The translations under genes and the position numbers were made by a program. This document shows, piece by piece, positions 1 through 27,029 of a DNA stretch of 64,000 nucleotides (positions within the stretch are counted from its first letter, which is position 1; each line of letters opens with the position of its first letter). The DNA is from Candidatus Omnitrophota bacterium (GTDB lineage: Bacteria > Omnitrophota > Omnitrophia > Omnitrophales > Aquincolibacteriaceae), in NCBI GenBank assembly GCA_030698625.1, contig JAUYMS010000034.1, forward strand, positions 2,835 to 66,834, given 5' to 3'. The notes under the pieces are model-generated. The model did not search any database and was not told where the DNA came from. It was given only the letters and a program-made list of their open reading frames with translations.

Positions 1-3000
1 CAATCTCATAAATTTATTCGTCTTTCGGTTGATCTCCTGGGCTATCATTTCTGGTTCAAATTGGTTACCGGGATCATTCCATGCTGTTGCATCATAGCTG
101 AAATCGTTGTGCCGGGCATTGAGAATTAAAATATTGACGTTTTCAATGCCTCCCGGAGCAGATCCTGTGAACCCAGCCTTTGACCATTCCGAAAGCAAAT
201 TTGTCGGATTAGACGGCGGGCCAAAATCACTTATGACGACAGGTTTTTTACTTGGATCGATACAAGATACCGACCCATTCGTATTGCAACCCGGGATTTG
301 ATTGGCTCGTGTCTCTATAATTTCATTAGGCGCTGTTCCCCAGACATTGATAATACGTTTGAGGTTAGGGTTGTCAATATGATCATTCCAATTCACATTG
401 GGTCCTTCGTAATTGATCACCGTTTGGACATCAAAATAACTTCCGTCATCCCGAGTCTTTTCTAAAGCACCCAAAAGCGGAGCAAAAAATCCAGAATGCG
501 CAAAGGCAATCCCCTTATCCAAAATGCCTTTAGCCTTCTCAAAATCAAGCAGCTTCTTTTTCACTTCTTCTATCAGGTCATTGCCGCCTAAGGCGTTCGC
601 TAATATCGGTAAAACGGACGGTGTAATTCCTAATGCTGCCGTCTTTAAAAGTTCGCTCGCGCTGCTTAGTTTGAAAATAAAGTCTTGAGCCCAATCCAAT
701 ATATTTCCCACGAGTCCCGTTGTCTCATACATAGGAACCAGTAAGGTCTTAGCAATATTGATAATAAAATCTTTAGTCGCTAGATCGCTCACAAACGACG
801 GCATCAGCTTATCCGGCGTGTTTTCAGGAACAATTTCATTGTTGAACCCGTTGCCAAAAACGAATTTTGAAGTATCAGTGGGCGCTGCAACAGTCGTGCT
901 TGCCCCGGGGCGGACTTCAGCGCTGGCGTATGCGACCTTGCCATCAAGTATATTGAACTTGAAGAAAAGATTATCAAAAAGAGTAGGCCTTTGCGGGTCA
1001 AAATCATCAGGAATTTTGATGACAACCGGCGAAGGATTGATTTCCACATCTCCCTGAAAGATTCGACCATCCTCAGTCATCCAAGGCTTCTGATCCTCGG
1101 GACCTTTGACTGTTATTATTGGCGTCCCTTCTATGCCGTAACTCCACCCGGTAAGTTTTCCGTTATCAAAGGTTTGGTTTAGGACTGCTCCCCCACCCAC
1201 AGCAGTTTCATAAGTTAGTTTTTGATAATAAATGCCACCTCCTTCGTCTTGACCTAATCCAGTAATACGGGCGCTTCCGCCAACGCCAAAGGATTCTGTG
1301 GCTTCTCCTGTTTGGGTATTGTAATCAATCCGGCTTGAGCCATTCTGCCAGGTCCAGATGTCCCCATTTTGCGTCACAGTAGCTCCCTTTAATCCTACTT
1401 CATCTTGATAAATTCCTTCTTGAGTCTGACGGCTGAAAATAGATGAGAAAGCGCTCACTGCTTTTTTAAACCCCTGCACCGTGACATTGCCAACCCCTTC
1501 GACCACTTTTTGACCAAAGGAAACGACATTTCCAACAACATTGGCAATCCCTCGTCCGAATTTTTGCAATCCTTCCCCGATCTTCGAGAGAATGCTCTGT
1601 CCCTTGGCTTGAATATCACCCGGGCCCCCACCTCCCGAAGAACCACCTGCTAGGCCAGACGCAATGGAGCCAAGGAAGTTACTGATGAAATTTGTAGCGA
1701 TTGGCGGCGCTCCAAGAGCATCAAGTCCTATGGCCGCACCTACTGAAACAAGGCCCCCCAAGGTTTGGCCACTGGTTAAAGCATCCTTTATCGAATTGAA
1801 GACACTTCCGGCACCAGTTCCATTTGTAAGGCCATTCATCAGACCGCCGACCGAAGCCATCACGGGGATCCCGATGAGTGCTGTAATGCGCCAATCAAGA
1901 CCGAGGGCGTTGCCGGCGGCGGTGACGCCGGCGGAGGCTAGGTCCATCGTAAGATGTGGAAGAGCTGTTTGGAGGCTGGTGAGACCGGCTGCGATGGATT
2001 CGCCGCCGCCGCTAAAACCGCCTCCGAAGGCGGCGAGGCCGGCTGCGCCGATGCTGATCAAATTCGTAGCGAGAGGCGGAAGGCTTGTGTGTAGGTTGAG
2101 CATCTCGGAGGTTCCACCGGACACAAACCCTAAGCTGGCAGCGACGCCAAGGGGGTTGCCGGTCGCGAGGAGACCGATCCCCATCGCAATTTTTCCACCG
2201 GCGATGATTGTGCGGCTGAGTTTAGGTGAAACACCGACTGCTTCCAGCAGGGATCCGGCACCCTGCAGCTCAAGACCGATTAGTGCGAGGTTGAAGCCAG
2301 CGCTGCCAACAAATCCCGAAAGCGCTCCTCCGATAAGCGGAATGCCGTTCAGGAAACCCTGGACAGGTGCCAGGAGAGTTGCGTTGAGGGTTCCCAAAGC
2401 GCTGGCGAGGCCGTATCCAAATTCGATGATTCCGCCGATCACTCCGCCGGCGATCTGTCCAAGACCCGTGAGCACGCCGGCGAAAAGCCCTTGGAGGCCG
2501 GCAAGGAAGTTACCCGTGAAGAGGCCGCCGAAGAAACTGCCGAAGCCTGAGAGGATGGAACCAACGCCTGATATGAGTCCGGTAAGAACAGTGCCGATTG
2601 CTGCAATGGTGGCGCTTACTGCGGCCATGACGGCCTGTGAGATGGCAATGAATGCGATTACAAGCAGCGTGAAGAAGGCGCCGCGCACCGACATTTCTTT
2701 TTCGATGGTGAGCGCGGCGTAAGAGGCCGGATCCGCCTCCGCAGGCGGCGGCCTTTGACTTAACGCATAACCAAAACCTTTGTCGGGGTCGCTCGGGTCA
2801 ACCCAAATCGCGACGAATTCTTCTTTCGTCATCGTGACTTGGTCGAGAGCCTGTTGGGCGCCCGCGCCCGGATCAATATAGGAGATCTCGTCGTCGGTGA
2901 CGCGGGTCACAATGATGTAGTGATTACCGTTGACGTGTGCAACCAGGCGGAAGTCACAGGTGTCGGGATCAGGAGCACAGGTATCGTCGTAAATAGCTTT

Positions 3001-6000
3001 AAGCGCATCGTAGTTCAGCGCAAAGGACTGCGTCTCAAGGCCGTAATGTGCGGCAACAGTGCGCAATGCAAACATCGAGATCACCAGGTCGTCTTTCTCG
3101 AGCGGTGTGATCGTGCCGGTCAGGATGTCGATCAGGATAAGGCGGGAAGCGAGTTCGACGCGCTCGAACTCTAGGCCCGCGCGCGCGAGCATCGCCTCGA
3201 TGGCCAGATAGGCGGACTGTCCGAAGTGAAGCGAGCGGGTACGCACCCAGTCGAGCGCAGCGTTTGCTTCAGCGGCGGACAAGTCGACAACTTGTTCGGG
3301 GAGTAAACCCAAGGCCTCGGCATAAGCCAGTTTTTCGGTGTCGCTGAGCAGGAGATAAGTTAAGAGCTCGGTTTCTACATTATTCTTAATGGTCTGAACC
3401 TCAGCGGTGCGATCTAAGAGTTCCTGCGAAGTCAGCAGGCTCTGCTTCAGTGCTTCGAGATCAAACAGGCCGGTTTCGAAATCAGCGGTGGCGATTACGG
3501 CGGCGTATTCCGCCTGTGAAGGATCGCGGCCCATGATCTTGCGGTACCAGTGGTAGACAACCGGCGTGATTTCCTGCTGTAGGATGTTGCGGCGGGCAAT
3601 CTGGTTCTCGGCCTCAATTTCGGCAAATGAGGCCTCGGCTTCGCTTAGAATTTGCTGCGAGGCTTCGGCCACCTGTGCCGCGAGCTGTTCGAGGGCTGCG
3701 GCCCGCTGGGCGGCAAGCGCTTCGAGTGCCCCGTTCACCTGATCGAGCCCGACCTGAATCTGCGACAGGGCATTCCCTAAAGTACTCTTCCCCTGTTTGC
3801 CGCGCACTTCGATCGAAGCAATCTCGCCGTGCTGCGCTTCGAGCTTGTCGCGAATCGCCAGCAGACGATCGCGCGCCACGACATACTGACCTTCGAGGGT
3901 CTGACTCAGTACCTGTTCGCGTTCGGCCACGCGCGCGAGTGCCTCTTCACGCTCCACCGCGATTTCGGCACGCAGCCGCAGCACCGCGGAATCAAGCCGC
4001 CGCCGCGCCCCGCCCATTTCAATACGGATGGGGTTGCCGTCGGCGTCGTAGGAATAAACCACGAGTTGTTCGCCGTTACCGGCAAGCACCCGATCGATCC
4101 GGCCTTCGTGGTAGGTCTCCAAAACACCCTCGGCATACCTGCGCGTGACCAGTTCGCCGTCAAGCGCGTACTCGCTCTCAATCGGCAGTGTGCCCGGCAA
4201 TCCGAAGTCCTGCCACACGGTAAGAATCTGGTCCTGCCATAGTTTCTCGGCCTCGGCTTGGTGAAACTCGGCCGATTCATTGGGGTTTACGAGATGCCCG
4301 TTTTCGGTGACCAGCCCGACCATATGACCGGCCGCGCCGGTCACCGCATAAGGATTGCCGTCCCTGAATTCGGTGACTGTACCGTCATTGTGAAATACTG
4401 TGGCGTCGAGAAGTATGGACGCGCCGGTTTCGTCTGCTTCGGCGGCATCGAAACTAATCAGTGTGCCGTCGGCGAGCCGCAGGTTCGTAAGCGTGCCGTC
4501 TTCATAGCCGGCCTCTTCACCCTCGGGTCCGGTAAAACCCGTGAGTGTGATCCGATGCACTTCTTCGCCAGCCGGATTATCCACCAGGCTCACCGAAGGC
4601 ACATCCACCGTAAAGGTGGATCCGTCGGGAAGCTCGACAGTCTCGGTCACAGCAACCGTGACGACATCACGGGCCGTTTCGAAACTGTGCGCATAGCGAA
4701 ACCCTTCCGGCGTGATATGAGAAAGGATATTGCCGTCCTCACCGTACTCTTCGCGCACCCCCTGTTCGGTCGTGATGACGCGGTTACCGCCGTCATTGGT
4801 GCTGTGTTCGAAGGTCTGGCGGACGCGGCCTTTGTACACAATGGAAGAACGCAGGAGTGCGCCGTCTTCACCGTACTCATAAACCGTATCCACGCCGGTG
4901 GCCGCGGTGCGTGAGATCAGGCGTTCGGCAAGGTAGCGTTCCGCGAGACCGGTGTCGGGGTCATAAACCACCGTGATTTCTTCGCCGGCATCATTGAATT
5001 CGTAGGAGTATTCAAGTGGGCTTTCGCCGGCACGCGACATTGCGCGCACACGGCCATAGGCAAGGTCGAGTGTTTCAGCGGTGCCATCCTCGCGGGTCAC
5101 GGTCTGCGTCTGGTCGTCAAACTCGATCACGGTGCCGTCGGGCAAGCGGCTCCGGCTCACGCGGCCTGCTTCCATTTGCGAGACGGTGCCGTACAGGGTT
5201 TCAAATTCCTCGGCCTCACCGGCCGTGTCAAAATCAATGCGGGTTTCGGCCGTCAGTAAGCGGCCCCAATCGAAATCCACCTCGCCGTTGGCTTCACTCA
5301 GGCCCAGGTATTGGGCAAGCGTTTCATTGCGGTCGGAGTAGACTTCGGCCAATAAGTCTTCTTGCGTAAGCATACGGTCGAGCCAGTCTTTGACCGCAGG
5401 CGGGCGCGGCGCCGCAAAAGTCACGTTGTCGACATATAAGGGAATGCCGGGGTTTTCACCGGCGGGTTCGAAGGTGATGCGGAGTTCGTCGGCATCGGAT
5501 TTGCCTGCGTCCATCGGCAGGTAATGGTCGGCCCACTCCATGCCGACCGCGTCAATTGTCCACTCCTGGTAGGACTCGGGCTCAGCGGGATCACCGAGCG
5601 TCACTTTCACGCGGCCCTCGGCCGCCCCCACCGGCTGCGCGGCACGGACACTTACGTGCAGGTAATCGTAGAGCGAGCTCTTTACAGAACTGCTCGCGGC
5701 CTGAATACCGCCGATTGCCATGACGCTCGCAGGCAGGAAACCCGATCCGGTGCCGAGTTGCACCCGCCACTCGGTGTCACCCTCGGTATAGAGCACGCGG
5801 TCGGGAATAGCATCGCCGTTTACGTCCGTAAGCTCCGCGACTTTTCTGACATAGGCCGGCGACCGGCCGCCGCCGTTATAGGAGCGAAAATTGCGGTCGT
5901 CCTGGGTAATAGCGGTTTCGCGCGTGCCCGTGCCCTCGATACCGCTCCAGGCTACGGGGTTAGCAAAGCTCGAGCCCGTGTTGACCTCGACCCACCAGGT

Positions 6001-9000
6001 GTCGTGCGTGCCGCCGTCATTGGCATCCACACTCACACGGTCGGGCAGGCCGTCGCCGGTGACATCCATAATATCGATAAGGACATTGCGCGGCTCGTCC
6101 CAACCGAGGAAGGCGCGCACACCGACTGCCGCCACCCCGCCGACTCCGGGCAGGGCACGCACGCTATTGTCCCAGAGCACGGCAGGCTCAAACCCTTTAC
6201 CGTTATTAAACTGCACATACCATTCCTGGACCGCACCGGCATCACCGAGGAAGCTTTCCTTCACGAGCACGCGGTCGAGGCGGCCGTCTCCGTCCATGTC
6301 GACCAAGTCGGAGACGTCAGCAACTAACTCCCCTTGCGCCGTGCTCTGCCGTTCGTACCACGAGAGTGACCCGGCAATTTCAGGGTCATTGTGAAAAGTC
6401 ATATCGACACCGGTCCACAAGATGGCACTGTCGAAACCGTCGCCTGTATTGTGTTGGTAGAACCAGTGGCTGAACGGCTGCACCGCAGGCCTGACAATGC
6501 GATCGGCAAGGCCGTCACCATCGATGTCGACGAGGTCACTCAAAAGCTCCTGCACATCTTTGCCGTCGTCACGCACCTCGAGCGCATAGGCCGCCTGAAA
6601 GCTCCACTGACTCGCGGGCTGAGCGTTCTCCGCCCACACTTCGAGCGGATCAAAACCGCTCCCGTTGTTGTATTGCACGTACCAGGTCTGCTCGCCTAAG
6701 AACTTCTGCACCACGCGGTCGGGCAGGCCGTCTCCGTTCATGTCGGCGAGGTCGCCGAGCACATGCGGGTGCCGGCCTTCGAAGAAACGCAGAGCGCCCA
6801 TCGTATGGGCATTGCAGCAGACTTCATTGCCGTAATCCTGGTCCACACCGGTCCAGCGCACGGGGCTGTCAAAGCCGTTGCCGTTGTTGTACTGAATCCA
6901 CCAAAACCCCATATTGGCGGTCACATCGATAAAGACGTGGTCTTTCAAGCCATCGCCGTTCATGTCGATGAGGTCGGCCGTCTGGGCAGGCAGGTTATCG
7001 TGCACATCCATCGTATGATTGCGGCCGATATAACCGAAACTGTTGACCGGGTTATTGAGAGAGACGCCGGTCCACTCCGGATCGTATTCCCCCGCAAATT
7101 CATACACGGTTTCGCGATCAGTGTCGCTCACGAGTTTTGAGACGAGCAGTGTCGTGCCGCCGTCGAGTTCGGATGAGACGGCAAGCGGGTCGGCGAGTGC
7201 GTCATGCGCCGGGCGTGCCAGCAGAATCTCAGAGAGTTCGGGATCGGTCAGCGGTTCGGGGCGTTCGTAAGACGGGTCCAGAAAGTGAAGCAAATATTGT
7301 GTGTCACCGTCGCGCTCATACTCTTCGACGCCAGGCGTAAAACCGGTGTTCCAACGTGCCGTCCGAGAAACACGGAACTCATCCATTCGCCCCTGCATGG
7401 AATAGGCGCCGCCGTGAAGACCGCCGACACTCAAACCGCCGCTCGCACCGCTCACGTTGCGGGCAAACTCTACAGCCGCGCCGATTTGTGCGCCATCGAC
7501 AAAAGCCTTCAACTGGCCGCTCTGTCTGACAAGTGCAATGTGATACCAGCGATTGACTTGAGGGGCCCAGGTAAAATTCCGGACGCTTCCGTCTATCCAC
7601 ACTTCGAGCGATTGTCCTGCCGCGGCCGCAGCCCTCATGCCGGTGCCGCCCGAACTCCCGAGTTGAAAGAAGCCGACCGAAGATTCGCCAGGAAAATTAT
7701 CGGACTGCATCCAGAAGTCGACCGTGAAATCCCCTGTTCCGATGAGCCAGGATGCTGGTTCAGGCACCGACAGAATATCCCCGCCCGCGTTGAAGCGCAT
7801 TGAGGCATGCCCGGTCTTAAAATTGTTGGTATCGATGGTGCTTGTGCCCTGCATGGAATAGCTGTCGTCACGCGGCGCAACACCGAGCACGGCCGTGGCC
7901 GGATCAAGTAGATAAGGCACGAGGGAGTGACTCGTGCCGCCGTCAAAAGTGCGTATAAGCTGCATGCCGGCGAGAGAGCCGTCGGCAGCGTCTTCATAAG
8001 AAAGATCATAACGACGGCCTTCGATTTCTACACCGCTGACGCGCCCTTCCGCGTAGAGCACTGCCGTGCCGTCGGCACGCACGGTCTTGGTGAGAACTCC
8101 CTGTTCGATCGTCTGCTGTGTCGCATCGGCAAAGGTGAGGGTACCTGATAAAATGCCTTCCGCATCGAAGCCGGGATTTTCGACCTCACCAAAGCGGGTA
8201 TAGAGCTGCGAAACTTCACCGTCGGTCATTTCGGCATGAACACCGTCTGTTAGAACGCGCAGAAGCGTGCCGGCCGGCGTGTAGGCGCGGAAGGCATGCT
8301 CTCCTTTAAATTGAATCTCCTGAAGTCCGCCGGCCTCGCCGCGCAGGTAAGACACTGTCTGCTCGCTTGCATCCGGCAGCACAATGCGCTCGGCCATGCC
8401 TTCGCGTCCATAATAAATTTGAGCACCGTCGCTTGTGGTCAAGCGGACCAAAGTTCCATTTTCATAAACCTTCACGATGCCGTCGGATGTTTCTTCTGTC
8501 ACCGTCGCCACCGCACCATTATCGAAGCCGATCGTGTGCAGACGCGACCCGTCGGGGAACAGGATCTCGCTGATTGCACCGCCGCCATAAACAACGTGCG
8601 TGCCGTCGCGAAAATGCCACTCGCGCAGAAGGGCTTGATCGTTGGCGAAGTCATAGATCTTGCCGTCTACGGTTTCAAAACCCGTCATCACACCGTTCTC
8701 GATGGTTTGCTTGATCCCCTCCTTTGTCTCGATAATGCCGCTGATAATATTGCCGTCTTCATCCAACTCGAAATTGCTCAATTGGTTTCCTCCGACAGTC
8801 TCGAGCAGCAAGTCCACCACGGCCTCGTCGTTCAGCATGCCGTCGCCGTCGGTGTCTTCGGCCAAGCGCCGCACCGTGCCGCCGCTCGTGACAATCGACT
8901 CGAGAAAACCGGAATCATCGTAGACAAAGTCTGTGCCGTCGCGGTTAACGGTGAGCCCCTTCATGAAGGACAACTCCTCCGCATAGGAGTAGCCGGCCGT

Positions 9001-12000
9001 TTCCGCACCGGTTTCATCCAACGCCCGAAGTACTCTGCCGTCGTCGAACTCAATTACCGAGCCGTCTTCCAGGACCGTTTTCAATACACTGCCGTCGGCG
9101 GCATAATCCGCCGCGGTCATGCTCTTGGCTTCAGGAGCACTCGAGACGGCCCGGTCGAGGCTCAGGGTGTAACCGTTTTCTGCAGCAATGCGGTTGTAGA
9201 TAAAGTGGGCGCCGGCGGCGTCCTCGACTTCACGCATGATTCCGAGCTTATCGTATTTGACGGAGTCGCCGGCCGCCGTAAAGATGCGTGTCGCGGCTAT
9301 TTCGGTTTGCGAAAGCTTCTCCACTGAGTGGTATTCCGTGATATCGGCCAGGATCTCGCGCACGACGAATGCCGCGGGAGTAAAATCCATAATGCCGCCG
9401 TCTGCGGCGATGCGCCTGAGCAGAGCCCCCTCGCGGATCACATCCAAAGAGCGGTCGGGGTACCGAATTAAAGCATCCACAATCTCGTTATTTTCGTTCA
9501 GCGTAAAATCCGTGATGCGTATACCGGTTTCCGTGCGCATTTCAACCAGCTGACCCGCCGCATAAAAGGCTTCGATGCCGTCTTCAAGTGTCAGGCGCAG
9601 GGCCTCGTCCTCGTTCAGCGCTGAAGCCTCCGGCAACGTAAGCGTTTCTACCAAACTGCCTCCGGCAGCCAGGCGCCTGACCACGCCGGTCGTGTCGTCA
9701 TAGTGAATCTCACGCCCATCGGCGTACCGATAAAACGCCGTGCTGCCGTCGGCGCGGTAAATCACCTCATCGCCGGCCGGCGTGATTTCGCGCACAAGAA
9801 CATCACTTTTGTAATAGAGTTCCGTTCCGTCGGCCAGCATGAAGACTTCATCCGGCGACTCCTTCTGCCGCACGATGATCTTATCGACGTAAAGATTCCT
9901 GTCGCCGTTGGTGCAGCAGTAGTCATTTGTGAAGGCAACGGCGAATTTGCGGTTACCGGCAACGAGCTCCACATCAAAAAGATAAGAATTCCATGATGTG
10001 ACAGCCACCGGATCAGGACCGGCAATCGTTTGGTTGTCGATCTTCAGCGACATGAGCGGCCAAACACCGCCACCCTGCTGGCCCCTCGCAATGACTTCGA
10101 TTTCGTATCCGCTCGTCTCCGGTATGTTACGCGTGGCATAAACCTCACCATTCGACCAAACATTCCAACCACCCGAAGCCGGTCCGCCCGTGGTCTTCCC
10201 CATATTCTCAGCCTCTAAAGTGAGGAGGAAGGGGTAGGGAGCGGACACAACGTCCGCTCCCGAGGGGGTGTACGTGGGATCGTCGGTGAGATAAAGAGAG
10301 TCGAGAAATGTGCCGTCCTCACGCTGATAAATACGGATCGTGTGCTCCCCCGCTGAAAGCACGGGTTTAAATAGACCGGCACTCCTGTCCTTGACCTGAG
10401 CCCATTCCCATGCGGTATGCGTTCCCGTGTCCCAAAGCTGAACGGGTCCGTTGTCGATCTGCACATAGAAGCTGTCGTCATCACCGCTCGGGCTCAGCGT
10501 GCGTCCCCAGAGGTAATAGGTGCCGTCCCACGGTACGGTGGTGTTGAACGTGACACTCTTATTGATGTCGGGGCTCTTAAGAAACACCCCGCCGTTCGCA
10601 ACGCCGATGTAACTGCCTGCGCTGGCATACCAGTCTTCGTAGACGGCGAAAGGACTCGCAATCGATGCGGCATTCTCGGCTTCAAGGACAATCGGCACTT
10701 CGGCTTCAATGGGCTCATAGGCCACCGCGAAAGATGCCGTCGTCTCGTTGCCGGCCGCGTCCGTCTCCGTCACCGTCAATGTGTTTGAGCCCTCGGTCAG
10801 CGTGAAATCCTTCGCTTTATCCGCGCCGTCGGCCGTATAGGTCAGCGTATAGGCCGCACGCACTGACGTTTGAGCTGAGGTAAATACAATCGCCGGCGCC
10901 GTTGAGTCGAACGTGGTCTCGACCACCACAGCCGTGCTTTCGTTTCCGCTGTCGTCTCTGGCCGTGATCGAAAAGGAGTAGAGCTTTTCTTCCGTGAGGG
11001 TCACGGCGTACGACCATGTCGTGCCTGCACTAACGGCCACAGCCTCCGCGCCGTTGATCCAAATGCCGGTGCCGGCGGCTTTGGTGCCCGCGAGGGTGAC
11101 TGTGCCGGCGTTGGTGAATGTCGGAATGTCCTCCACGGTAGGCGGCGCAATCGTTGTCACTAAATCCACTGTCACACTGCCGGTCAAAACCGTTTCATTG
11201 CCGGCCGCGTCTACTTCATCGATTCTGAGTTCGTTAATCCCCTGCACTAGATTCTCAAAGGCCTTTGTCTTGGAGATGCCGTCAACCGTATATTCCACAG
11301 TCAACGAATCTATGGTAATGACAGGGGCAGGGCCTCCCAAGCCATCGCCGGAAGCCACGGATTGAATCTCTTCGGCTGAGAGTCCGCGCTCAAAGACCCG
11401 AACATCATCCATCAGGCCGCGGAAATAATAGCTCGAAGGGCGGTCGACCCATCCGTTCAGATTGTCGTAGCCGATCCGCCAATACCCCGGGTAGTTTTCC
11501 GCCGTCTTCACCGCCGCGTTTTCAGCTGCCAAAGTGCCGTCCATGTATAACTGCATCCCGTCCGCAGAAAGAGTTGCCGCCACGTGATGCCAGGCGCCAT
11601 CATTGTAGGAATTTACAGTCTTAATCGTTTTGACGGTGCCCGGGTAGACCCCGAAATAGAGCTGGCCGGCATTGTTCATGTAAATGTGCCGGTCATAGCT
11701 AGTACTTGTGCCCGTCTGTGATCTGCCGAACCCTATCAGCTTCCCGCCCGTCGCAGAGCCTGTCTTAAACCAAAGCGAAAGACTGAATTCACTTGGATTC
11801 GTAAATGCGGTTGTAGTCGAAACATAATCATTGATGCCGTCAAAATTCAAGCTGCCGCTGTTCGGGAGGATCACATTGGGATGGTCAGGGTTTGAAGCGG
11901 GCCCGTTCATCAATTGCCCGTCATTACCCGAACCCGACTGATCCGTCACCGTGCCTCCGCTCACATCATCAAAACTCCAATATCCGGTCTGACCTTCGAG

Positions 12001-13818
12001 CGAGGTTGTTCCCTGGAAGAATACTGAGTCCGTCACAATCTTGGGCGCGATCGTATCCAGGACCACGGTGTAACTCACCGTAGTCGTGTTGCCGGCGGCA
12101 TCCGTGCCCGTCGCCGTCAACGGATTCGCGCCCTCGACTAAGGTGTACGACTTTGTCTTAGCCGCCCCATCCACCGTATAAATCAACATATAATTCGCGT
12201 CATTCGTCAATGCGGCTGAGGTGATTGCAACGACCGGCGCGGTTTGATCGAGTGTCGTCTCGACCACCACAGCCGTGCTTTCGTTTCCGCTGTCGTCTCT
12301 GGCCGCGATCGAAAAGGAGTAGAGCTTTTCTTCCGTGAGGGTTAGGGTGTGTGACCAGGTCGTGGCCGTACTGACGGCTTCGGCCTCGGCTCCGTTAATC
12401 CAAATGCCGGTGCCGGCGGCTTTGGTGCCCGCGAGGGTGACGGTGCCGGCGTTGGTGAATTCAGGAACAACCTCCACCGTAGGAGGAACGACTGCCGGTG
12501 CCGCATTAAGAACGCGCACAGAAAAATTGTCGAACACCCTCCCATAGACATCCGCATAGATGCCGACTTTGCCGGTAAGATACGGGGCGGTATCTTCGAA
12601 TTCCGTTTTCAGGACATCATCAAAATAAACCTTGAAGTGTCCTCCCTCGACACTCGCTGTGATTTTGTGCCAGGCCGCTGAAACCGTACCGACCGAGAAA
12701 GAATGGATGGCGGCCACGCCGTCCGGGACTGATTTTTGGATCGTTCCCCGGCCCCACTCATCCACCGTCACATAATAATATTGGCGTGCGTCCGTGTACC
12801 TAAGGAGCAGCCCTCGTCTTGTCAGGCCGCCGCCGAAGTAACTCGACACCGACGCCTCATAATCGTTACCGGCCAAGGTTGGGTTAAGCGTCACACCCCC
12901 GTCATGCACCGGATAGCTGTTATAACCGTACAGCTCCGTCCCGTTGCGAACGGCATAATTGCCGCGAACCACCGCCCAGTCAGTCCCGAGCGAGGCACGG
13001 TCAAAGTTGTCGGTAAACTCAACCAACTCGCTGGCCCGATAGGATTCTGTAGCAGAAACCTGCCCGCTGTTAATCAGATCCGTTTCCCGAATGAACTCAT
13101 TCAGCAAGGCTCGCGCTTCAACCTGCGAGGGCTCCCGCACGCGATCCTCCCGCACCGCCTGCCTCAACGCACTCAGATAGTCCTCAGGCTCGACTCGGGC
13201 GACCTCGCCGCCTGCACGATAGCCGTAAATGCCGGCGTCGCTAATGACGTATTCCGTAAACTCTAAGGCTGAAGAGCGGTCGAGTGCGCTGGGGCCGGAA
13301 TCGTGGAAATCGTGGGGATGCGTGTGCGAAACAAAGCTTGCCTGATTCAATAAGTTGAGGGGGGGATCACCAACACGGATCTCATCCCGATTACCAGAAC
13401 TAAAGAGAATGATCTCCCCTTTCAAAACGGCGATGCCGACCTCAAAGGACAGATCGGTTAACCGATCGATATCGTCGGCGGTCAGGCGGTCGACAACCAC
13501 AGCGACGGCATAATCGGGGCGCAGTTCCTCGGCGGCCGTTTCAAAATTAATGCGCGCAAGGTCTCCTTCTTCCTCGGCTTCTTCTTGTTCGAGTACTTCC
13601 GAGAGAGGACTGTTGTCTGAGAGAAAATCTGTGGATGTGCGGGGCTCACGCGGCTTTTCAACCTCAAGGGCGGCGCGGGCATCTTCAACTGCCCCGGATA
13701 GCGGCGTTAGCGGGAGGGAACCGACCTCATGAAGCTCGGCAGACATTCCGATCTGCGTCGTCAGAAATGTAATCACCGTAATAACCGCGATAACCTTTAT
13801 TTTTTCTCCGTGTCTCAT
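1..13818 (-). CDS. Giant secreted Rhs/teneurin/Tc-toxin-like mosaic protein (>4605 aa in window; 3' end and stop codon lie beyond the left window edge). Domain order: signal peptide, JAB-like motif, jelly-roll/LamG lectin-like domains, Ig-like repeats, 2x CBM-like, YD-like repeats, FG-GAP propeller, YD-like repeats, coiled coil, C39-like fold, Gly-rich hydrophobic region, C-terminal domain
   Basis: Manual translation of the minus strand from ATG at 13818..13816 (MRHGEKIKVIAVITVITFLTTQIGMSA... hydrophobic signal-like N-terminus). In-frame stop upstream at 13852-13854 bounds the ORF. The ORF track lists no minus-strand ORF >=60 aa in this frame anywhere in 1..13818, consistent with a frame that never reaches a stop inside the window. 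Recognisable motifs: LamG (SLWFKTG...DDVRVFERGLSAEEI), FG-GAP-like DLxDMNGDGLPDRV...YxNNGxGF repeated 6x, many xDGxxxxYxYD YD-like repeats, LEAEN...GGW CBM-like modules. The whole frame was read by eye; an undetected frameshift cannot be excluded. Confidence 0.7.
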   Translation of the reverse strand, partial: MRHGEKIKVIAVITVITFLTTQIGMSAELHEVGSLPLTPLSGAVEDARAALEVEKPREPRTSTDFLSDNSPLSEVLEQEEAEEEGDLARINFETAAEELRPDYAVAVVVDRLTADDIDRLTDLSFEVGIAVLKGEIILFSSGNRDEIRVGDPPLNLLNQASFVSHTHPHDFHDSGPSALDRSSALEFTEYVISDAGIYGYRAGGEVARVEPEDYLSALRQAVREDRVREPSQVEARALLNEFIRETDLINSGQVSATESYRASELVEFTDNFDRASLGTDWAVVRGNYAVRNGTELYGYNSYPVHDGGVTLNPTLAGNDYEASVSSYFGGGLTRRGLLLRYTDARQYYYVTVDEWGRGTIQKSVPDGVAAIHSFSVGTVSAAWHKITASVEGGHFKVYFDDVLKTEFEDTAPYLTGKVGIYADVYGRVFDNFSVRVLNAAPAVVPPTVEVVPEFTNAGTVTLAGTKAAGTGIWINGAEAEAVSTATTWSHTLTLTEEKLYSFSIAARDDSGNESTAVVVETTLDQTAPVVAITSAALTNDANYMLIYTVDGAAKTKSYTLVEGANPLTATGTDAAGNTTTVSYTVVLDTIAPKIVTDSVFFQGTTSLEGQTGYWSFDDVSGGTVTDQSGSGNDGQLMNGPASNPDHPNVILPNSGSLNFDGINDYVSTTTAFTNPSEFSLSLWFKTGSATGGKLIGFGRSQTGTSTSYDRHIYMNNAGQLYFGVYPGTVKTIKTVNSYNDGAWHHVAATLSADGMQLYMDGTLAAENAAVKTAENYPGYWRIGYDNLNGWVDRPSSYYFRGLMDDVRVFERGLSAEEIQSVASGDGLGGPAPVITIDSLTVEYTVDGISKTKAFENLVQGINELRIDEVDAAGNETVLTGSVTVDLVTTIAPPTVEDIPTFTNAGTVTLAGTKAAGTGIWINGAEAVAVSAGTTWSYAVTLTEEKLYSFSITARDDSGNESTAVVVETTFDSTAPAIVFTSAQTSVRAAYTLTYTADGADKAKDFTLTEGSNTLTVTETDAAGNETTASFAVAYEPIEAEVPIVLEAENAASIASPFAVYEDWYASAGSYIGVANGGVFLKSPDINKSVTFNTTVPWDGTYYLWGRTLSPSGDDDSFYVQIDNGPVQLWDTGTHTAWEWAQVKDRSAGLFKPVLSAGEHTIRIYQREDGTFLDSLYLTDDPTYTPSGADVVSAPYPFLLTLEAENMGKTTGGPASGGWNVWSNGEVYATRNIPETSGYEIEVIARGQQGGGVWPLMSLKIDNQTIAGPDPVAVTSWNSYLFDVELVAGNRKFAVAFTNDYCCTNGDRNLYVDKIIVRQKESPDEVFMLADGTELYYKSDVLVREITPAGDEVIYRADGSTAFYRYADGREIHYDDTTGVVRRLAAGGSLVETLTLPEASALNEDEALRLTLEDGIEAFYAAGQLVEMRTETGIRITDFTLNENNEIVDALIRYPDRSLDVIREGALLRRIAADGGIMDFTPAAFVVREILADITEYHSVEKLSQTEIAATRIFTAAGDSVKYDKLGIMREVEDAAGAHFIYNRIAAENGYTLSLDRAVSSAPEAKSMTAADYAADGSVLKTVLEDGSVIEFDDGRVLRALDETGAETAGYSYAEELSFMKGLTVNRDGTDFVYDDSGFLESIVTSGGTVRRLAEDTDGDGMLNDEAVVDLLLETVGGNQLSNFELDEDGNIISGIIETKEGIKQTIENGVMTGFETVDGKIYDFANDQALLREWHFRDGTHVVYGGGAISEILFPDGSRLHTIGFDNGAVATVTEETSDGIVKVYENGTLVRLTTSDGAQIYYGREGMAERIVLPDASEQTVSYLRGEAGGLQEIQFKGEHAFRAYTPAGTLLRVLTDGVHAEMTDGEVSQLYTRFGEVENPGFDAEGILSGTLTFADATQQTIEQGVLTKTVRADGTAVLYAEGRVSGVEIEGRRYDLSYEDAADGSLAGMQLIRTFDGGTSHSLVPYLLDPATAVLGVAPRDDSYSMQGTSTIDTNNFKTGHASMRFNAGGDILSVPEPASWLIGTGDFTVDFWMQSDNFPGESSVGFFQLGSSGGTGMRAAAAAGQSLEVWIDGSVRNFTWAPQVNRWYHIALVRQSGQLKAFVDGAQIGAAVEFARNVSGASGGLSVGGLHGGAYSMQGRMDEFRVSRTARWNTGFTPGVEEYERDGDTQYLLHFLDPSYERPEPLTDPELSEILLARPAHDALADPLAVSSELDGGTTLLVSKLVSDTDRETVYEFAGEYDPEWTGVSLNNPVNSFGYIGRNHTMDVHDNLPAQTADLIDMNGDGLKDHVFIDVTANMGFWWIQYNNGNGFDSPVRWTGVDQDYGNEVCCNAHTMGALRFFEGRHPHVLGDLADMNGDGLPDRVVQKFLGEQTWYVQYNNGSGFDPLEVWAENAQPASQWSFQAAYALEVRDDGKDVQELLSDLVDIDGDGLADRIVRPAVQPFSHWFYQHNTGDGFDSAILWTGVDMTFHNDPEIAGSLSWYERQSTAQGELVADVSDLVDMDGDGRLDRVLVKESFLGDAGAVQEWYVQFNNGKGFEPAVLWDNSVRALPGVGGVAAVGVRAFLGWDEPRNVLIDIMDVTGDGLPDRVSVDANDGGTHDTWWVEVNTGSSFANPVAWSGIEGTGTRETAITQDDRNFRSYNGGGRSPAYVRKVAELTDVNGDAIPDRVLYTEGDTEWRVQLGTGSGFLPASVMAIGGIQAASSSVKSSLYDYLHVSVRAAQPVGAAEGRVKVTLGDPAEPESYQEWTIDAVGMEWADHYLPMDAGKSDADELRITFEPAGENPGIPLYVDNVTFAAPRPPAVKDWLDRMLTQEDLLAEVYSDRNETLAQYLGLSEANGEVDFDWGRLLTAETRIDFDTAGEAEEFETLYGTVSQMEAGRVSRSRLPDGTVIEFDDQTQTVTREDGTAETLDLAYGRVRAMSRAGESPLEYSYEFNDAGEEITVVYDPDTGLAERYLAERLISRTAATGVDTVYEYGEDGALLRSSIVYKGRVRQTFEHSTNDGGNRVITTEQGVREEYGEDGNILSHITPEGFRYAHSFETARDVVTVAVTETVELPDGSTFTVDVPSVSLVDNPAGEEVHRITLTGFTGPEGEEAGYEDGTLTNLRLADGTLISFDAAEADETGASILLDATVFHNDGTVTEFRDGNPYAVTGAAGHMVGLVTENGHLVNPNESAEFHQAEAEKLWQDQILTVWQDFGLPGTLPIESEYALDGELVTRRYAEGVLETYHEGRIDRVLAGNGEQLVVYSYDADGNPIRIEMGGARRRLDSAVLRLRAEIAVEREEALARVAEREQVLSQTLEGQYVVARDRLLAIRDKLEAQHGEIASIEVRGKQGKSTLGNALSQIQVGLDQVNGALEALAAQRAAALEQLAAQVAEASQQILSEAEASFAEIEAENQIARRNILQQEITPVVYHWYRKIMGRDPSQAEYAAVIATADFETGLFDLEALKQSLLTSQELLDRTAEVQTIKNNVETELLTYLLLSDTEKLAYAEALGLLPEQVVDLSAAEANAALDWVRTRSLHFGQSAYLAIEAMLARAGLEFERVELASRLILIDILTGTITPLEKDDLVISMFALRTVAAHYGLETQSFALNYDALKAIYDDTCAPDPDTCDFRLVAHVNGNHYIIVTRVTDDEISYIDPGAGAQQALDQVTMTKEEFVAIWVDPSDPDKGFGYALSQRPPPAEADPASYAALTIEKEMSVRGAFFTLLVIAFIAISQAVMAAVSATIAAIGTVLTGLISGVGSILSGFGSFFGGLFTGNFLAGLQGLFAGVLTGLGQIAGGVIGGIIEFGYGLASALGTLNATLLAPVQGFLNGIPLIGGALSGFVGSAGFNLALIGLELQGAGSLLEAVGVSPKLSRTIIAGGKIAMGIGLLATGNPLGVAASLGFVSGGTSEMLNLHTSLPPLATNLISIGAAGLAAFGGGFSGGGESIAAGLTSLQTALPHLTMDLASAGVTAAGNALGLDWRITALIGIPVMASVGGLMNGLTNGTGAGSVFNSIKDALTSGQTLGGLVSVGAAIGLDALGAPPIATNFISNFLGSIASGLAGGSSGGGGPGDIQAKGQSILSKIGEGLQKFGRGIANVVGNVVSFGQKVVEGVGNVTVQGFKKAVSAFSSIFSRQTQEGIYQDEVGLKGATVTQNGDIWTWQNGSSRIDYNTQTGEATESFGVGGSARITGLGQDEGGGIYYQKLTYETAVGGGAVLNQTFDNGKLTGWSYGIEGTPIITVKGPEDQKPWMTEDGRIFQGDVEINPSPVVIKIPDDFDPQRPTLFDNLFFKFNILDGKVAYASAEVRPGASTTVAAPTDTSKFVFGNGFNNEIVPENTPDKLMPSFVSDLATKDFIINIAKTLLVPMYETTGLVGNILDWAQDFIFKLSSASELLKTAALGITPSVLPILANALGGNDLIEEVKKKLLDFEKAKGILDKGIAFAHSGFFAPLLGALEKTRDDGSYFDVQTVINYEGPNVNWNDHIDNPNLKRIINVWGTAPNEIIETRANQIPGCNTNGSVSCIDPSKKPVVISDFGPPSNPTNLLSEWSKAGFTGSAPGGIENVNILILNARHNDFSYDATAWNDPGNQFEPEMIAQEINRKTNKFMRL
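1640..2700 (-). other. ~330-aa Gly/Ala/Leu-rich hydrophobic region (glycine-zipper-like, predicted membrane-inserting) near C-terminus of gene A
   Basis: Translation ...AVSATIAAIGTVLTGLISGVGSILSGFGSFFGGLFTGNFLAGLQGLFAGVLTGLGQIAGGVIGGIIEFGYGLASALG...GGSSGGGGPG shows continuous small-xxx-small (GxxxG/AxxxG) periodicity across ~1 kb. Confidence 0.55.
2820..3350 (-). other. C39-like papain-fold domain with Ser in the catalytic-Cys position (or divergent RHS-core-like region)
   Basis: LHFGQSAYLAIEAMLARAG (Q...S-AYLA.EAML where C39 peptidases have Q...CGxAALxMxL) ... RLVAHVNGNHYIIVTRVTDDEISYIDPGAG (H-containing HYVVV strand followed by DP). Also contains the ISYIDPG...VDPSDPDKGFG DP-rich stretch. 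Confidence 0.3.
4300..5350 (-). other. YD/RHS-like repeat block 2 of gene A
   Basis: GTVIEFDDQTQTVTRDGTTETLDLAYGRVRAMSRAGESPLEYSYEFNDAGEEITVVYDPDTGLAERYLAERL...VYEYGEDGALLRSSIVYKGRVRQTFEH...YSYDADGNPIRIE. Confidence 0.4.
5770..7000 (-). other. Six FG-GAP/VCBS-like repeats (predicted beta-propeller) in gene A
   Basis: DLIDMNGDGLKDHVF...WWIQYNNGNGFDSPVRW; DLADMNGDGLPDRVV...WYVQYNNGSGFDPLEVW; DLVDIDGDGLADRIV...WFYQHNTGDGFDSAILW; DLVDMDGDGRLDRVL...WYVQFNNGKGFEPAVLW; DIMDVTGDGLPDRVS...WWVEVNTGSSFANPVAW; LTDVNGDAIPDRVL...WRVQLGTGSGFLPASV. This is the Ca-binding DxDxDG plus aromatic-Gly pattern of integrin-alpha/TcB-type propeller blades. Confidence 0.55.
7370..7760 (-). other. LamG/concanavalin-like domain 2 of gene A
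   Basis: GDFTVDFWMQSDNFPGESSVGFFQLG...GQSLEVWIDGSVRNFTWAPQVNRWYHIALVRQSGQLKAFVDGAQIGAAVEF...GRMDEFRVSRTARW. Confidence 0.5.
8000..9880 (-). other. YD/RHS-like repeat block 1 of gene A
   Basis: Repeated ~20-aa units of form xDGxxxxYxYDxxGxLxxV (DGSVIEFDDGRVLRALDETG, DGTDFVYDDSGFLESIVTSGG, DGKIYDFANDQALLREWHFRDGTHVVY, TSDGAQIYYGREGMAERIVLPD, ...). Confidence 0.45.
9880..10690 (-). other. Two tandem CBM6/CBM35-like carbohydrate-binding modules in gene A
   Basis: Both modules open with LEAEN (VLEAENAASIASPFAVYEDWYASAGSYIGVANGG...IDNGPVQLWD and LTLEAENMGKTTGGPASGGWNVWSNGEVYAT...LKIDNQTIAG), the common start of CBM35/CBM6-type modules. Family assignment is tentative. Confidence 0.4.
10905..11165 (-). 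repeat. Intragenic near-identical repeat copy 2 (Ig-like domain coding)
   Basis: See partner 12250..12510; spacing ~1344 bp, an in-frame multiple of 3. Confidence 0.8.
11380..11850 (-). other. LamG/concanavalin A-like lectin domain 1 of gene A
   Basis: SEFSLSLWFKTGSATGGKLIGFGRSQTGTSTSYDRHIYMNNAGQLYFGVYPGTVKTIKTVNSYNDGAWHHVAATLSADGMQLYMDGTLAAENAAVKTAENYPGYWRIGYDNLNGWVDRPSSYYFRGLMDDVRVFERGLSAEEIQSV is a classic laminin-G/pentraxin-like pattern (SLWxK...W.HVA.T......LY.DG........F.G.IDDVR.F.R.LS..EI). Confidence 0.55.
12250..12510 (-). repeat. Intragenic near-identical repeat copy 1 (Ig-like/BIG-type domain coding; partner at 10905..11165)
   Basis: ~260 nt at 12252-12505 is ~90% identical to 10908-11160 (gaccaccacagccgtgctttcgtttccgctgtcgtctctggcc...gatccaaatgccggtgccggcggctttggtgcccgcgagggtgac). 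Both copies encode ...TNAGTVTLAGTKAAGTGIWINGAEA.AVS..TTWS..TLTEEKLYSFSI.ARDDSGNESTAVVVETT.D.TAP. Confidence 0.8.
12530..13100 (-). other. Concanavalin/DUF1080-like jelly-roll domain in gene A
   Basis: Ends with GKVGIYADVYGRVFDNFSVRV, resembling the C-terminal GxIGLQ..V.FRNI strand of DUF1080/GH16-like lectin folds. Confidence 0.3.
13285..13330 (-). other. JAB/MPN-like metal-binding motif (HTHPHDFHDSGPSALD, HxH-x7-S-xx-D pattern) near N-terminus of gene A
   Basis: Translated minus strand: QASFVSHTHPHDFHDSGPSALD. HPH-x7-S-xx-D matches the JAMM HxHx7Sx2D spacing, and an acidic residue lies upstream (GNRDEIRVGDPP). Motif-level only. Confidence 0.3.
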
Positions 13819-13999
13819 CACACGGAAAGGTACCCGCGGTTCGGTGGTTACTCAATGGGAGGAGGTCAAAATAGACGCGCGTGATCTATTATTAGTAGAT
13901 TTCTATCTATTGAATTACTTAGACGCGAGGAGATACACGATTGTGTATCTCTTCATCCAGGAGGGTACTGCACTTTGGATTTAGTGATAAAGCCTGAGG

Positions 14000-14767
14000 T
14001 TATTCTTTGGGTTTAACGCGTCTTTTGCGCCATGCTCCAAGGCCGGCAAGTGCACTTCCGAGAAGCACCATGCTCGAGGGCTCGGGAACATTTGTGCTGC
14101 CGCCCGACGGCGTCGGCGATTGAACCACCTGCCCGACGCTACCGACCGTGAAGTCGTCGAAACCAAAGAAGTCAACGCCTGCAGCGGTGTTACCAAACTG
14201 CACCTCGCTAAAGAGGTTTTGAGTGTCTATCACAGCAAAATAGAGAACTCCCCCGCCTGTTACGTTGGTGGAGTTCGGAACGGTGATGACTTGGGTGGTT
14301 CCGTTCAAAAGGGTGAGCTGTACCTGCCCGCCGAAGTCACCGATATCGGTGGCGAAGAAGCCGAAGGCCGCCACGGGATCGGACAAAAGGATTGAAAATG
14401 AACTGCCGGTCTCAAAATAGTTGTCGCCGGAGATCGGAAACCGGCCGACTCCGTTGGTACCGGATGATACGGTCTGAACAGAACCCGTTCCCTGCAGGGT
14501 CGCCGTCACACCGGCCCCCGGGAAGTTGATTACGAGCGGGGTTCCGGTATTGTCTGCAAATCCCTCGAAATCTTCGGTGCCGGGGCTGATAAGGTTACTC
14601 AAGAATGAAGCCTGTGCCGCATCGGCATTGGGATGACTGGTCTGACGCGTCCCTTCTCCGATACCGGCGTCCTCGCCGAAGAAGGTCTGCGGAACAGCGT
14701 AAGCGCCTGTTGCCAAACTGAGCACCGCGACGAATACCGCTACTGCAACAAACAGGGAGCGCTTCAT
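14000..14767 (-). CDS. PEP-CTERM sorting-domain secreted protein
   Basis: ORF track 14000..14830. Preferred start is ATG at 14767, preceded by AGGAGA with 7-nt spacing. That start gives signal peptide MKRSLFVAVAVFVAVLSLATGAYA. The C-terminus VPEPSSMVLLGSALAGLGAWRKRRVKPKE is a textbook PEP-CTERM anchor (VPEP, TM helix, basic tail). Confidence 0.8.
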   Translation of the reverse strand: MKRSLFVAVAVFVAVLSLATGAYAVPQTFFGEDAGIGEGTRQTSHPNADAAQASFLSNLISPGTEDFEGFADNTGTPLVINFPGAGVTATLQGTGSVQTVSSGTNGVGRFPISGDNYFETGSSFSILLSDPVAAFGFFATDIGDFGGQVQLTLLNGTTQVITVPNSTNVTGGGVLYFAVIDTQNLFSEVQFGNTAAGVDFFGFDDFTVGSVGQVVQSPTPSGGSTNVPEPSSMVLLGSALAGLGAWRKRRVKPKE

Positions 14768-15018
14768 TAGTGAATCTCCTAGTAAATTGAATATTTGTCG
14801 GTTACTAAAATGACGCTTATAACACAGCAACTCCTATGCCAGAAGCACCTACCCCATGAAGTTCAAAAAATTTTGCTTTAACGCATTTAACAGTCGTCTG
14901 TTAGGAGGTTATCCACAGACACACATACCCGATATGTCACAGACACACCGGGACATGCCTTGATATAGCGTCTATGGATGTGAACAATGTGAGGAATTCT
15001 CGATATAGAGACGGAAAA

Positions 15019-26919: not shown

Positions 26920-27029
26920 CCAGCTAGCTCCCTTGTGAGTGAATGATTTCGTGGCATGCTGTCTGCAGGATACCAAAAAAATGGGCTGAGCGCTACAGCG
27001 AAACGGCGCGAACGGGATGTTCGCGTCAG

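Follow-up and report, generated by a model that had tools for sequence, protein, structure and literature searches.

A predicted polymorphic-toxin-like effector cassette with a lipase-like terminal domain in a giant surface protein of Omnitrophota

Omnitrophota are uncultured, mostly ultra-small bacteria. Their giant proteins have been suspected of attacking other cells, though not on direct evidence. Two preprints describe C39 domains and C-terminal transmembrane segments in long Omnitrophota proteins, with proteolytic maturation proposed alongside the attack on cells (bioRxiv 10.1101/2023.11.21.568195; 10.64898/2026.06.07.730766); the second, from 2026, defines a 24-protein architecture cluster by PF03412 (C39). 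Among better described systems, the closest are the polymorphic toxins, in which α/β-hydrolase toxin domains are known (Tox-ABhydrolase-1/2/3; Zhang, Aravind et al. 2012, PMC3482391), and the glycine-zipper depolarising toxins (the C-terminal domain of Tse5, held in an Rhs cocoon, the C-terminus of EsxX, and the ionophores of contact-dependent growth inhibition, CDI; PMC11630599, PMC12744356). To these are added two C39 or C39-like domains: that of StbD, a CdiA-like protein, auto-processes at a Gly-Gly site inside a polymorphic toxin (bioRxiv 10.64898/2026.05.07.723447), and that of HlyB only binds, as cited by West-Roberts et al. 2023 (bioRxiv 10.1101/2023.11.21.568195). This article concerns gene A, which encodes a giant secreted or surface protein at the left end of a window of 64,000 nt (the whole stretch of DNA analysed: Candidatus Omnitrophota bacterium, assembly GCA_030698625.1, contig JAUYMS010000034.1, positions 2,835 to 66,834). 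We lean, with some reserve, towards reading its last ~940 residues as an exchangeable effector cassette that ends a giant Omnitrophota surface protein and that is predicted to act like a polymorphic toxin on a new carrier.

On the minus strand, gene A has an open frame of 4617 codons that extends from nt 13851 and, at nt 1, leaves the window by its left edge. The protein likely starts at Met12 (nt 13818); its N-terminus, MRHGEKIKVIAVITVITFLTTQIGMSA, resembles a signal peptide as judged from the sequence, and the missing end is estimated from relatives at ~46 codons and a stop. The elements relevant to the cassette are the following:

1..13818, minus strand: gene A, giant secreted/surface protein; open frame of >4606 aa from Met12, cut at the left edge of the window
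2662..3561, minus strand: C39-peptidase-like domain, aa ~3431-3730 (Pfam, profile of relatives, invariant columns, family hidden Markov model, HMM)
2677..2712, minus strand: double-glycine-like motif L3714-T-I-E-K-E-M-S-V-R-G3724-A3725, with the proposed scissile bond before F3726
1597..2676, minus strand: glycine-zipper hydrophobic region, aa 3726-4085, 360 aa (composition, ladder counts)
1650..1800: junction in base composition and recombination, where the mobile cassette has its 5' edge (GC content, blastn)
862..1596, minus strand: beta-rich middle (M) domain, aa 4086-4330 (phmmer)
1..861, minus strand: α/β-hydrolase (H) domain, aa 4331-4617, its last ~46 aa outside the window (AlphaFold2, Foldseek, conservation)
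847-849, 493-495, 226-228, 109-111 and 103-105, minus strand: H-domain key residues G4335, S4453, D4542, H4581 and D4583, respectively

The C-terminal region (aa 4086-4617, nt 1-1596, 533 aa) had been taken in an initial annotation, made from the sequence alone, for a single domain of ~540 aa at nt 1-1640; the region is present at close to that extent, but phmmer and HMM work divide it into two domains, M, found in only a subset of relatives, and H, found in nearly all. An AlphaFold2 (AF2) model on a 9-sequence alignment had a predicted local distance difference test score (pLDDT) of 42.9 and did not resolve the fold of the M domain (pLDDT <50). For the H domain, a 48-sequence alignment gave a pLDDT of 84.5 and a predicted template-modelling score of 0.86, with classic α/β-hydrolase topology: in the numbering of the model, a strand (129-134), Ser135, a helix (135-145), strands at 157-163, 181-187 and 252-258, then His263. 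The GxSxG-like stretch that had been noticed as a candidate nucleophile elbow, GIAFAHSGFFAPLLG (aa 4447-4461, nt 469-513), holds up well in this light: GIAFAHSGFF forms the elbow, S4453 sits where a strand turns into a helix, the acid loop comes after the 'RIINVWG' strand, and H4581 follows the last core strand. The best Foldseek match in the PDB is the Archaeoglobus fulgidus lipase 2zys (E 7.4e-4, prob 1.00), followed by cutinases, PETases, acyl-protein thioesterase 1 (APT1), carboxylesterase/phospholipase family proteins and venom phospholipase A1; essentially all leading matches are α/β hydrolases of these lipase, cutinase, PETase, esterase and phospholipase kinds.

Conservation agrees with the model. 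In an alignment of 89 H-domain representatives at <=50% identity, G4335, S4453, G4454 and H4581 are invariant, and P4458, G4505, N4573 and D4583 nearly so (the last, in H-x-D, in 76 of the 89); the elbow reads A-H-S-G-F in the window and [AG]-[YH]-S-G-[GF] in the family consensus, and G4335, in an N-G motif, is the probable oxyanion hole. The canonical Asp after 'NVWGT' is found in 53 of the 89 sequences, where the window has Pro4508; the window's subgroup has an inserted loop ending G-D-F-G-P-P, and D4542 is the likely triad acid of the window's H domain, because it is kept in 31 of the 35 sequences that have no canonical Asp or Glu. We hold the α/β-hydrolase fold with its conserved Ser and His with high confidence. 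Searches with divergent tails and 48 family members against Pfam, NCBIfam and PDB gave no meaningful match to lipase, Tle or Tox-ABhydrolase families, and since the window's own C-terminal region is equally without sequence match in these databases, the H domain is, on model and conservation, a remote α/β hydrolase of a new family of the esterase/lipase type; whether its substrate is an ester lipid we regard as an even call. Two of the 48 family members in the alignment (relatives, not the window itself) weakly match Pfam DUF637 (E 0.002), and ten other sequences do not. DUF637 occurs in haemagglutinin/CdiA-type proteins.

The family is large and follows one architecture. A word-index search with the C-terminal 533 aa found nine metagenome proteins only; a full HMMER scan of 1.84 billion representatives, using the alignment of those nine, found 219 proteins, 131 of them at E<=1e-10, and the H-domain family comprises at least 200 clusters, nearly all of which have the domain at the end of proteins of 3000-5000 aa. 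Many of the 219 are 3000-5000 aa long and match at their C-terminus, and the H-domain giants share the order C39-like domain, hydrophobic/Gly-rich region, (middle domain), hydrolase. Back-translated pattern scans of GTDB genomes gave nine loci, most of them in Omnitrophota metagenome-assembled genomes and three labelled uncultured Planctomycetia; the loci closest to gene A are from Omnitrophota. L007 (Omnitrophica RIFCSPLOWO2_12_FULL_50_11) shares 91% amino-acid identity across all 533 aa, and L008, which holds a complete gene A orthologue of 3889 aa, shares 80% over the C-terminal region. Giants whose tails phmmer left unmatched were considered as carriers of unrelated toxins, a candidate that was rejected when an iterated HMM made most of them divergent members of the hydrolase family. 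Three relatives (P0074, P0120, P0146) have other C-terminal tails after the shared C39-like region; because these tails lie outside the iterated hydrolase list, some true toxin-type polymorphism may exist among the giants. On visual inspection, the tail of P0120 shows a C-H-S-A-G elbow and that of P0074 no recognisable motif; P0119, with an L-Y-S-G-S-G elbow, is in the list through a weak partial match (E 4.3e-22).

Immediately after the H domain, relatives encode a small partner protein. In L007 and L008 the gene runs ~46 aa past the point at which the window ends, as its open left edge had led the initial annotation to expect, then stops, and is followed 1 to 7 nt on by a small gene whose product (170 or 179 aa) begins with a hydrophobic anchor and is TPR-like in its C-terminal half; L016, located via this small protein and 98% identical in DNA to nt 1-498 of the window, has the same tail (...LYQFSLTDQTRPGDLRFFLENTTGISFDSANQVWVVDPSQLEF) and the same small gene. 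With HMMs, a partner is found <=15 nt after the H domain in all 14 of the fetched loci that have downstream sequence (18 pairs). The partners are mutually homologous (25-43% identity to the L007 copy), and their homologues (n=43, 119-323 aa) have only TPR families on record, with a weak YbgF/TPR match in NCBIfam. The window's own left flank was not recovered (an exact 40-mer scan of metagenome contigs gave only the L007 contig and the L016-type orphan locus, and a word-index protein search with the C39-like domain one unrelated fragment), and it is therefore from the relatives that we infer the small gene beside the window's copy, where the earlier suggestion of a small downstream gene had placed it.

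The H domain and its partner probably stand to each other as toxin and immunity protein. Across the pairs, divergence of the partner correlates with that of the hydrolase core (rho 0.73) and of the tail (rho 0.72) alike and does not discriminate between them, so that only the L007/L008 pair is informative on tail specificity: between these two, the H core is 91% identical, the last 48 aa 41% and the partner 40%. For L007 and L016 the corresponding values are 98%, 100% and 92%. The extreme tail of the H domain and the small gene thus appear to move together, which hints that the tail is a specificity determinant for the partner, and the drop of L007/L008 identity at ...KTN.F.R.LY, where the window ends, places a recombination breakpoint there.

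The 5' edge of the exchanged DNA lies within gene A itself. Above nt ~1800 the GC content ranges from 0.56 to 0.62, and below nt ~1650 from 0.42 to 0.49 (overall, a change from 0.60 to 0.44); blastn homology of the window to L007 is confined to nt 1-1767 (84%) and to L008 mainly to nt 4-1592 (76%). At the protein level, the window and L008 are ~50% identical overall and 80-98% in the H domain; with 10-46%, the glycine region is conserved least of all parts of gene A. Several loci hold further copies of the hydrolase in tandem, some of them truncated, each with its own partner gene: the third hydrolase of L005 is 5'-truncated and lacks the first ~100 positions of H, L011 holds a fragment of the last ~90 H positions, L012 a second hydrolase/partner pair, and L016 an H fragment that starts exactly at H-S-G-F-F and is followed by the partner gene and by a Y1 transposase of the IS200 type. 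It is the hydrolase, rather than the glycine region, that travels in the mobile cassette and the orphan modules. A conserved partner gene, orphan arrays and cassette exchange are thus all observed in this family, and the GC break, the cassette-limited DNA homology, the partner gene of the relatives and the orphan modules together speak for the behaviour of a polymorphic toxin; to this extent the toxin cassette foreseen in the initial annotation is supported.

The clearest orphan array in the set is that of L005, where three tandem hydrolase/partner pairs occupy positions 1700-6930 of a single 7.6-kb contig. Genes for Y1 transposases of the IS200/IS605 type adjoin orphan or truncated cassettes at L016 (2897-3484), L001 (57-1043) and L017 (2010-2597); at L001 the giant gene seems to have been cut by the transposase inside its C39-like domain. 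These transposases may be the vehicle of cassette movement. One relative (P0006, locus L003) is a stand-alone form with its own signal peptide that begins near the cassette boundary and adjoins an integrase and a HicB antitoxin; it fits a released fragment as the functional unit.

A housekeeping role would explain part of the same evidence: the glycine region would be the C-terminal anchor of an adhesin, the hydrolase would act on the producer's own envelope or on environmental esters, and the partner would be a chaperone or regulator resembling a lipase-specific foldase (Lif). Lif foldases are encoded after lipA in Pseudomonas and Burkholderia, have an N-terminal anchor, are all-helical and measure ~300 aa or more. 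The partner is likewise N-terminally anchored, all-helical (TPR) and encoded directly after the enzyme gene, C-terminal transmembrane segments have been called anchors in other giant Omnitrophota proteins, and one family supplies the terminal domain throughout the giants. Yet the partner has about half the size of a Lif, its homologues have no record but TPR families, and no lipase-chaperone profile matches it; the 5'-truncated orphan enzyme fragments each keep a partner gene, as is typical of toxin/immunity turnover, the cassette is foreign in GC content and exchanged between lineages, and the stand-alone signal-peptide form lies among mobile-element genes (integrase, HicB). We therefore consider housekeeping rather unlikely and retain the effector reading.

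Between a coiled-coil-like region and the glycine region lies a C39-like domain (nt 2662-3561) that the initial annotation had missed. PF03412 Peptidase_C39 scores 25.3 to 30.4 bits on gene A, against a cut-off of 22 bits, over profile positions 45-121 of 133 only; a profile built from the C39-like domains of 16 relatives matches the C39 domain of PCAT1 (7n87, E 0.005) over the His/Asp half, i.e. the part with the catalytic His and the D-P-G Asp, for which the profile was needed, as a PDB search with the single gene A sequence gave no match. The family HMM matches gene A with E 4.7e-119, and the domain stands directly upstream of the payload in all giant relatives. H3542, S3546 (nt 3214-3216) and H3644 (nt 2920-2922) are invariant and D3660 is mostly Asp/Glu; where the nucleophile helix is expected, the family reads L-H-F-G-Q-S-A, with His and Ser invariant. 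The family alignment has no conserved Cys, so that the Cys-His-Asp triad of Peptidase C39 is not found. By its spacing to a conserved helix-end Gly, and by comparison with the Pfam consensus, S3546 would occupy the position of the nucleophile Cys.

Just after this domain, in 37 cluster representatives, stands the consensus L-[ST]-x2-E-x3-[IV]-R-G-[AS]-F-[FWL], with a variable linker before it; the window's copy is LTIEKEMSVRGA, followed by FF. The motif agrees with double-glycine leaders at positions -12, -11, -8/-9, -4, -2 and -1, and, as in the precursors of class II bacteriocins, it leads into a hydrophobic polypeptide rich in Gly. Because of this double agreement, we propose that the C39-like domain recognises, and probably cuts, the double-glycine-like site in cis; that the cut falls between RGA and FF is possible, though on the whole we would not count on it. 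The element in front of the payload is in any case a C39-like domain with a double-glycine-like site, not the aspartyl-protease plug of Rhs proteins.

The glycine-zipper region that begins at F3726, noticed earlier as a stretch of Gly/Ala/Leu small-xxx-small repeats at nt ~1640-2700 and put at ~330 aa, is real; it measures 360 aa at nt 1597-2676. Its composition over aa 3721-4090 is 20.8% G, 14.6% L and 13.8% A, and 18 of these 370 residues are charged. There are 50 small-xxx-small-xxx-small ladders, where shuffled sequences have 30+/-5 (0 of 1000 shuffles reached 50), and 24 GxxxG motifs, against 15.7+/-3.1 (a count reached in 8 of 1000 shuffles). The ladders are thus enriched, but 'uninterrupted', as they had been called, they are not: the sole long run without charged residues, Pro, Asn or His is the first ~57 aa, which include one Gln (Q3739), the remainder consists of Gly-rich runs of 14-20 aa with moderate hydropathy, and internal sequence repeats were looked for and not found. 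Relatives carry a comparable, poorly conserved hydrophobic/Gly-rich region.

With such ladders and charge nearly absent over 360 aa, the glycine region might itself be the toxin, a depolarising channel to which the hydrolase would be an accessory or a second toxin. Glycine-zipper depolarising toxins are indeed known at the C-termini of polymorphic toxins (PMC11630599, PMC12744356), and the site before the region resembles that of a bacteriocin. Against this, the region has no Pfam or PDB similarity to any pore-former, and its low identity to L008 contrasts with that of the hydrolase. Its length far exceeds that of known Gly-rich pore-forming peptides and toxin domains. The cassette and the orphan modules leave it behind, and the partner accompanies the hydrolase even where the glycine region is missing. 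A pore as the primary toxin is therefore quite improbable. The region could equally serve as a membrane-insertion or tethering segment for the enzyme, and we have a weak preference for such a segment over an autonomous pore, because it is the least conserved part of the gene and because cassette, orphans and partner gene all track the hydrolase.

Put together, these elements suggest the following course of events. The giant protein would be exported via its N-terminal signal peptide, and its laminin-G-like, immunoglobulin-like, carbohydrate-binding and propeller domains would bind the envelope of a target cell; the C39-like domain would recognise, and probably cut, the site between RGA and FF, exposing a very hydrophobic new N-terminus; the glycine-zipper region would then enter the membrane and hold the esterase or (phospho)lipase at the bilayer for hydrolysis of ester lipids; and the membrane-anchored TPR protein, facing the periplasm, would neutralise the enzyme in the producer and its kin. 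The most specific form of this proposal, which we put forward tentatively and regard as doubtful, is a 'tethered bacteriocin', in which a Ser-substituted C39-like domain cuts off a fragment of ~940 residues (~890 aa in the window) at a double-glycine site in cis, the exposed glycine-zipper N-terminus drives the new-family lipase into a host, prey or competitor cell's membrane, and a membrane-anchored TPR protein that reads the variable last ~48 residues protects the producer.

Several observations weigh against the effector reading or parts of it. Because the catalytic Cys is missing, the C39-like domain, with Ser in its place, may act by binding only, as the C39-like domain of HlyB does. The double-glycine-like motif is internal rather than N-terminal, has Glu at -8 or -9 but no conserved hydrophobic residue at -7, and NCBIfam has no leader-peptide model that matches gene A. 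The C-terminal 533 aa have no match in Pfam (E<=10), NCBIfam or PDB by sequence, and the Foldseek matches of the H domain are remote (TM 0.25-0.41). A Sec-exported protein with so many hydrophobic segments might stay in the membrane of its own producer, and a membrane-anchored helical protein encoded right after a lipase gene also fits a lipase-specific foldase; for the window's copy, moreover, that gene is known from relatives, as the window ends before its position. Finally, the terminal domain is one divergent family throughout, not many unrelated toxins, and the gene A family is less polymorphic than classical Rhs or CDI systems.

The remaining parts of gene A, and the named features between it and the next giant frame, are these:

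3532..3984, minus strand: Ala/Glu/Leu/Gln-rich, coiled-coil-like region, aa 3290-3440 (A 26, E 19, L 17, Q 16 of 151 residues)
5572..7251, minus strand: FG-GAP / TcdB-middle-N-like beta-propeller region, aa 2201-2760 (Pfam)
14000-14830 and 20541-21236, minus strand: two PEP-CTERM proteins
24073-27117, minus strand: fused transaldolase/phosphoglucose isomerase

Pfam finds on gene A two Laminin_G_3 domains, CBM60, Big_13, an FG-GAP/TcdB_toxin_midN propeller and Peptidase_C39 (aa 3591-3683). The propeller matches FG-GAP_3 with E 1.6e-10 in six stretches and TcdB_toxin_midN with 30.7 bits against a cut-off of 24.8, and is the sole solid element of Tc/Rhs type in gene A. It invites a reading in the frame of the initial annotation, which had pointed to the encapsulated toxic cargo of Rhs/Tc systems: the C-terminal region would be kept unfolded in a cocoon of YD repeats and freed by autoproteolysis of the Rhs type; a few YD-like motifs (aa 2950, 3266) and a sub-threshold RHS_repeat score (E 0.007) point the same way. 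The 'YD blocks' named in the initial annotation are weak: RHS_repeat reaches 17.1 bits, against a cut-off of 22, in one segment and has no match in the other, with 1-3 motifs of YD type. There is no DPxG[LW] motif, nor the broader DPxG[LWMIV], in the 4617 aa, and no Rhs core (TIGR03696 included) in NCBIfam at E<=1; ~430 aa of coiled-coil-like and C39-like sequence separate the YD-like stretch from the payload, and a payload of ~940 aa with a folded hydrolase of 300 aa and 360 hydrophobic residues seems too big for the lumen of a cocoon. Membership in the Rhs/Tc class was accordingly rejected, and cargo of this kind is very improbable.

Near the N-terminus, a metal-site motif of the JAB/MPN type, H-T-H-P-x8-P-S-x2-D (HTHPHDFHDSGPSALD), is found at aa 176-191 (window 13279-13326, minus strand) and kept in the L008 orthologue as SHTHPGEYSAEGPSGQD; Pfam has no domain at this position, and the motif could mark a second, N-terminal peptidase-like module.

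All genes between 14000 and 29179 lie on the minus strand; beside those listed, they encode a CHASE2-SpoIIE phosphatase, a FecR-like protein, a TPR protein, a RecN-like ATPase, a LysM-amidase and a histidine kinase. None of the ten window genes scanned (14-29 kb) is an ABC (ATP-binding cassette)/PCAT exporter or a secretion-system gene. Beyond them, a second giant frame at 29814-63998, also on the minus strand (>11,383 codons), leaves the window at its right edge. Its first 5000 aa have no Pfam match at E<=1e-5, and family HMMs find no C39-like or H domain in the frame; further in, hexapeptide repeats occur, as does a SecA_DEAD-like domain (about nt 47379-48032). Giant Omnitrophota proteins have been described with domains of the SecA type (bioRxiv 10.1101/2023.11.21.568195).

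The locus reduces to a small set of parts: a hydrolase of 300 aa, a candidate immunity protein of 170 aa, a candidate site of 12 residues and a C39-like domain with Ser for Cys. If the effector reading is true, they would give two new families, one of lipase-like toxins and one of immunity proteins, recognised by no present profile library; they would show the dynamics of polymorphic toxins in Omnitrophota with a giant Sec-exported protein as carrier instead of T5, T6 or T7 substrates; they would offer a possible case of bacteriocin-type double-glycine processing in cis; and they would provide an annotation rule for >200 protein clusters that are now functionally unannotated. If release at the double-glycine-like site and membrane insertion also prove true, contact-dependent effectors would gain a new logic of delivery and processing, and the ultra-small, putatively predatory Omnitrophota their first defined pair of effector and immunity protein.

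Compared with known systems, gene A resembles the giant Omnitrophota proteins in its Omnitrophota loci, very long open frame, C39 domain, C-terminal transmembrane segments and proposed role in attack; unlike them, it is 'long' (~4.7 thousand aa) rather than a giant of >30 thousand. Term searches of the two preprints (bioRxiv 10.1101/2023.11.21.568195; 10.64898/2026.06.07.730766) returned no lipase-like terminal domain, partner or immunity gene, cassette exchange or double-glycine-like site in cis. With the TcB subunit of Tc toxins gene A shares the TcdB_toxin_midN/FG-GAP propeller, but no SpvB domain, Rhs shell or Rhs core is detected in it, and no TcA-like partner was recognised among the scanned window genes. 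With the C39 domains of PCAT and AMS exporters it shares a Pfam match above cut-off, the PCAT1 profile match and conserved His and Asp/Glu; it differs in the invariant Ser for Cys and in that the domain lies inside a giant secreted protein, not in a fusion to an ABC exporter, with the leader-like motif internal, in cis, directly C-terminal to the domain and unconserved at -7. The site itself resembles double-glycine leaders in L(-12), S/T(-11), E(-8/-9), I/V(-4), G(-2) and A/S(-1) and in its Gly-rich hydrophobic sequel. StbD is a precedent for self-processing by C39 in a polymorphic toxin, of the kind that gene A would represent if the predicted cleavage takes place. Like Tse5, EsxX and the CDI ionophores, the large protein of gene A has, close to its C-terminus, a hydrophobic small-xxx-small segment rich in Gly; unlike theirs, this segment is several-fold longer, poorly conserved, followed by two more domains and free of a cocoon, and the immunity-like gene tracks the hydrolase instead.

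The nearest counterparts are the Tox-ABhydrolase polymorphic toxins and the Tle phospholipases of type VI secretion (T6SS) with their periplasmic Tli immunity proteins. As in these, a C-terminal α/β hydrolase sits on a large multidomain carrier, a gene for a small envelope protein follows directly downstream in relatives, fragments and immunity genes form orphan arrays, and a cassette deviant in GC content is exchanged. In contrast to them, the gene A hydrolase is tied by no sequence profile to a Pfam family of lipases, to Tle or to Tox-ABhydrolase, and its carrier has no trafficking domain of T6SS, T5SS or T7SS (type VI, V or VII secretion systems), no PAAR, VENN or Rhs core; instead, it is a giant with a Sec signal, a glycine zipper of 360 aa and one divergent terminal family. 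What is new here is thus the toxin family, the immunity family, the carrier and the candidate processing module, each as predicted; the polymorphic effector/immunity system is, as a kind, known.

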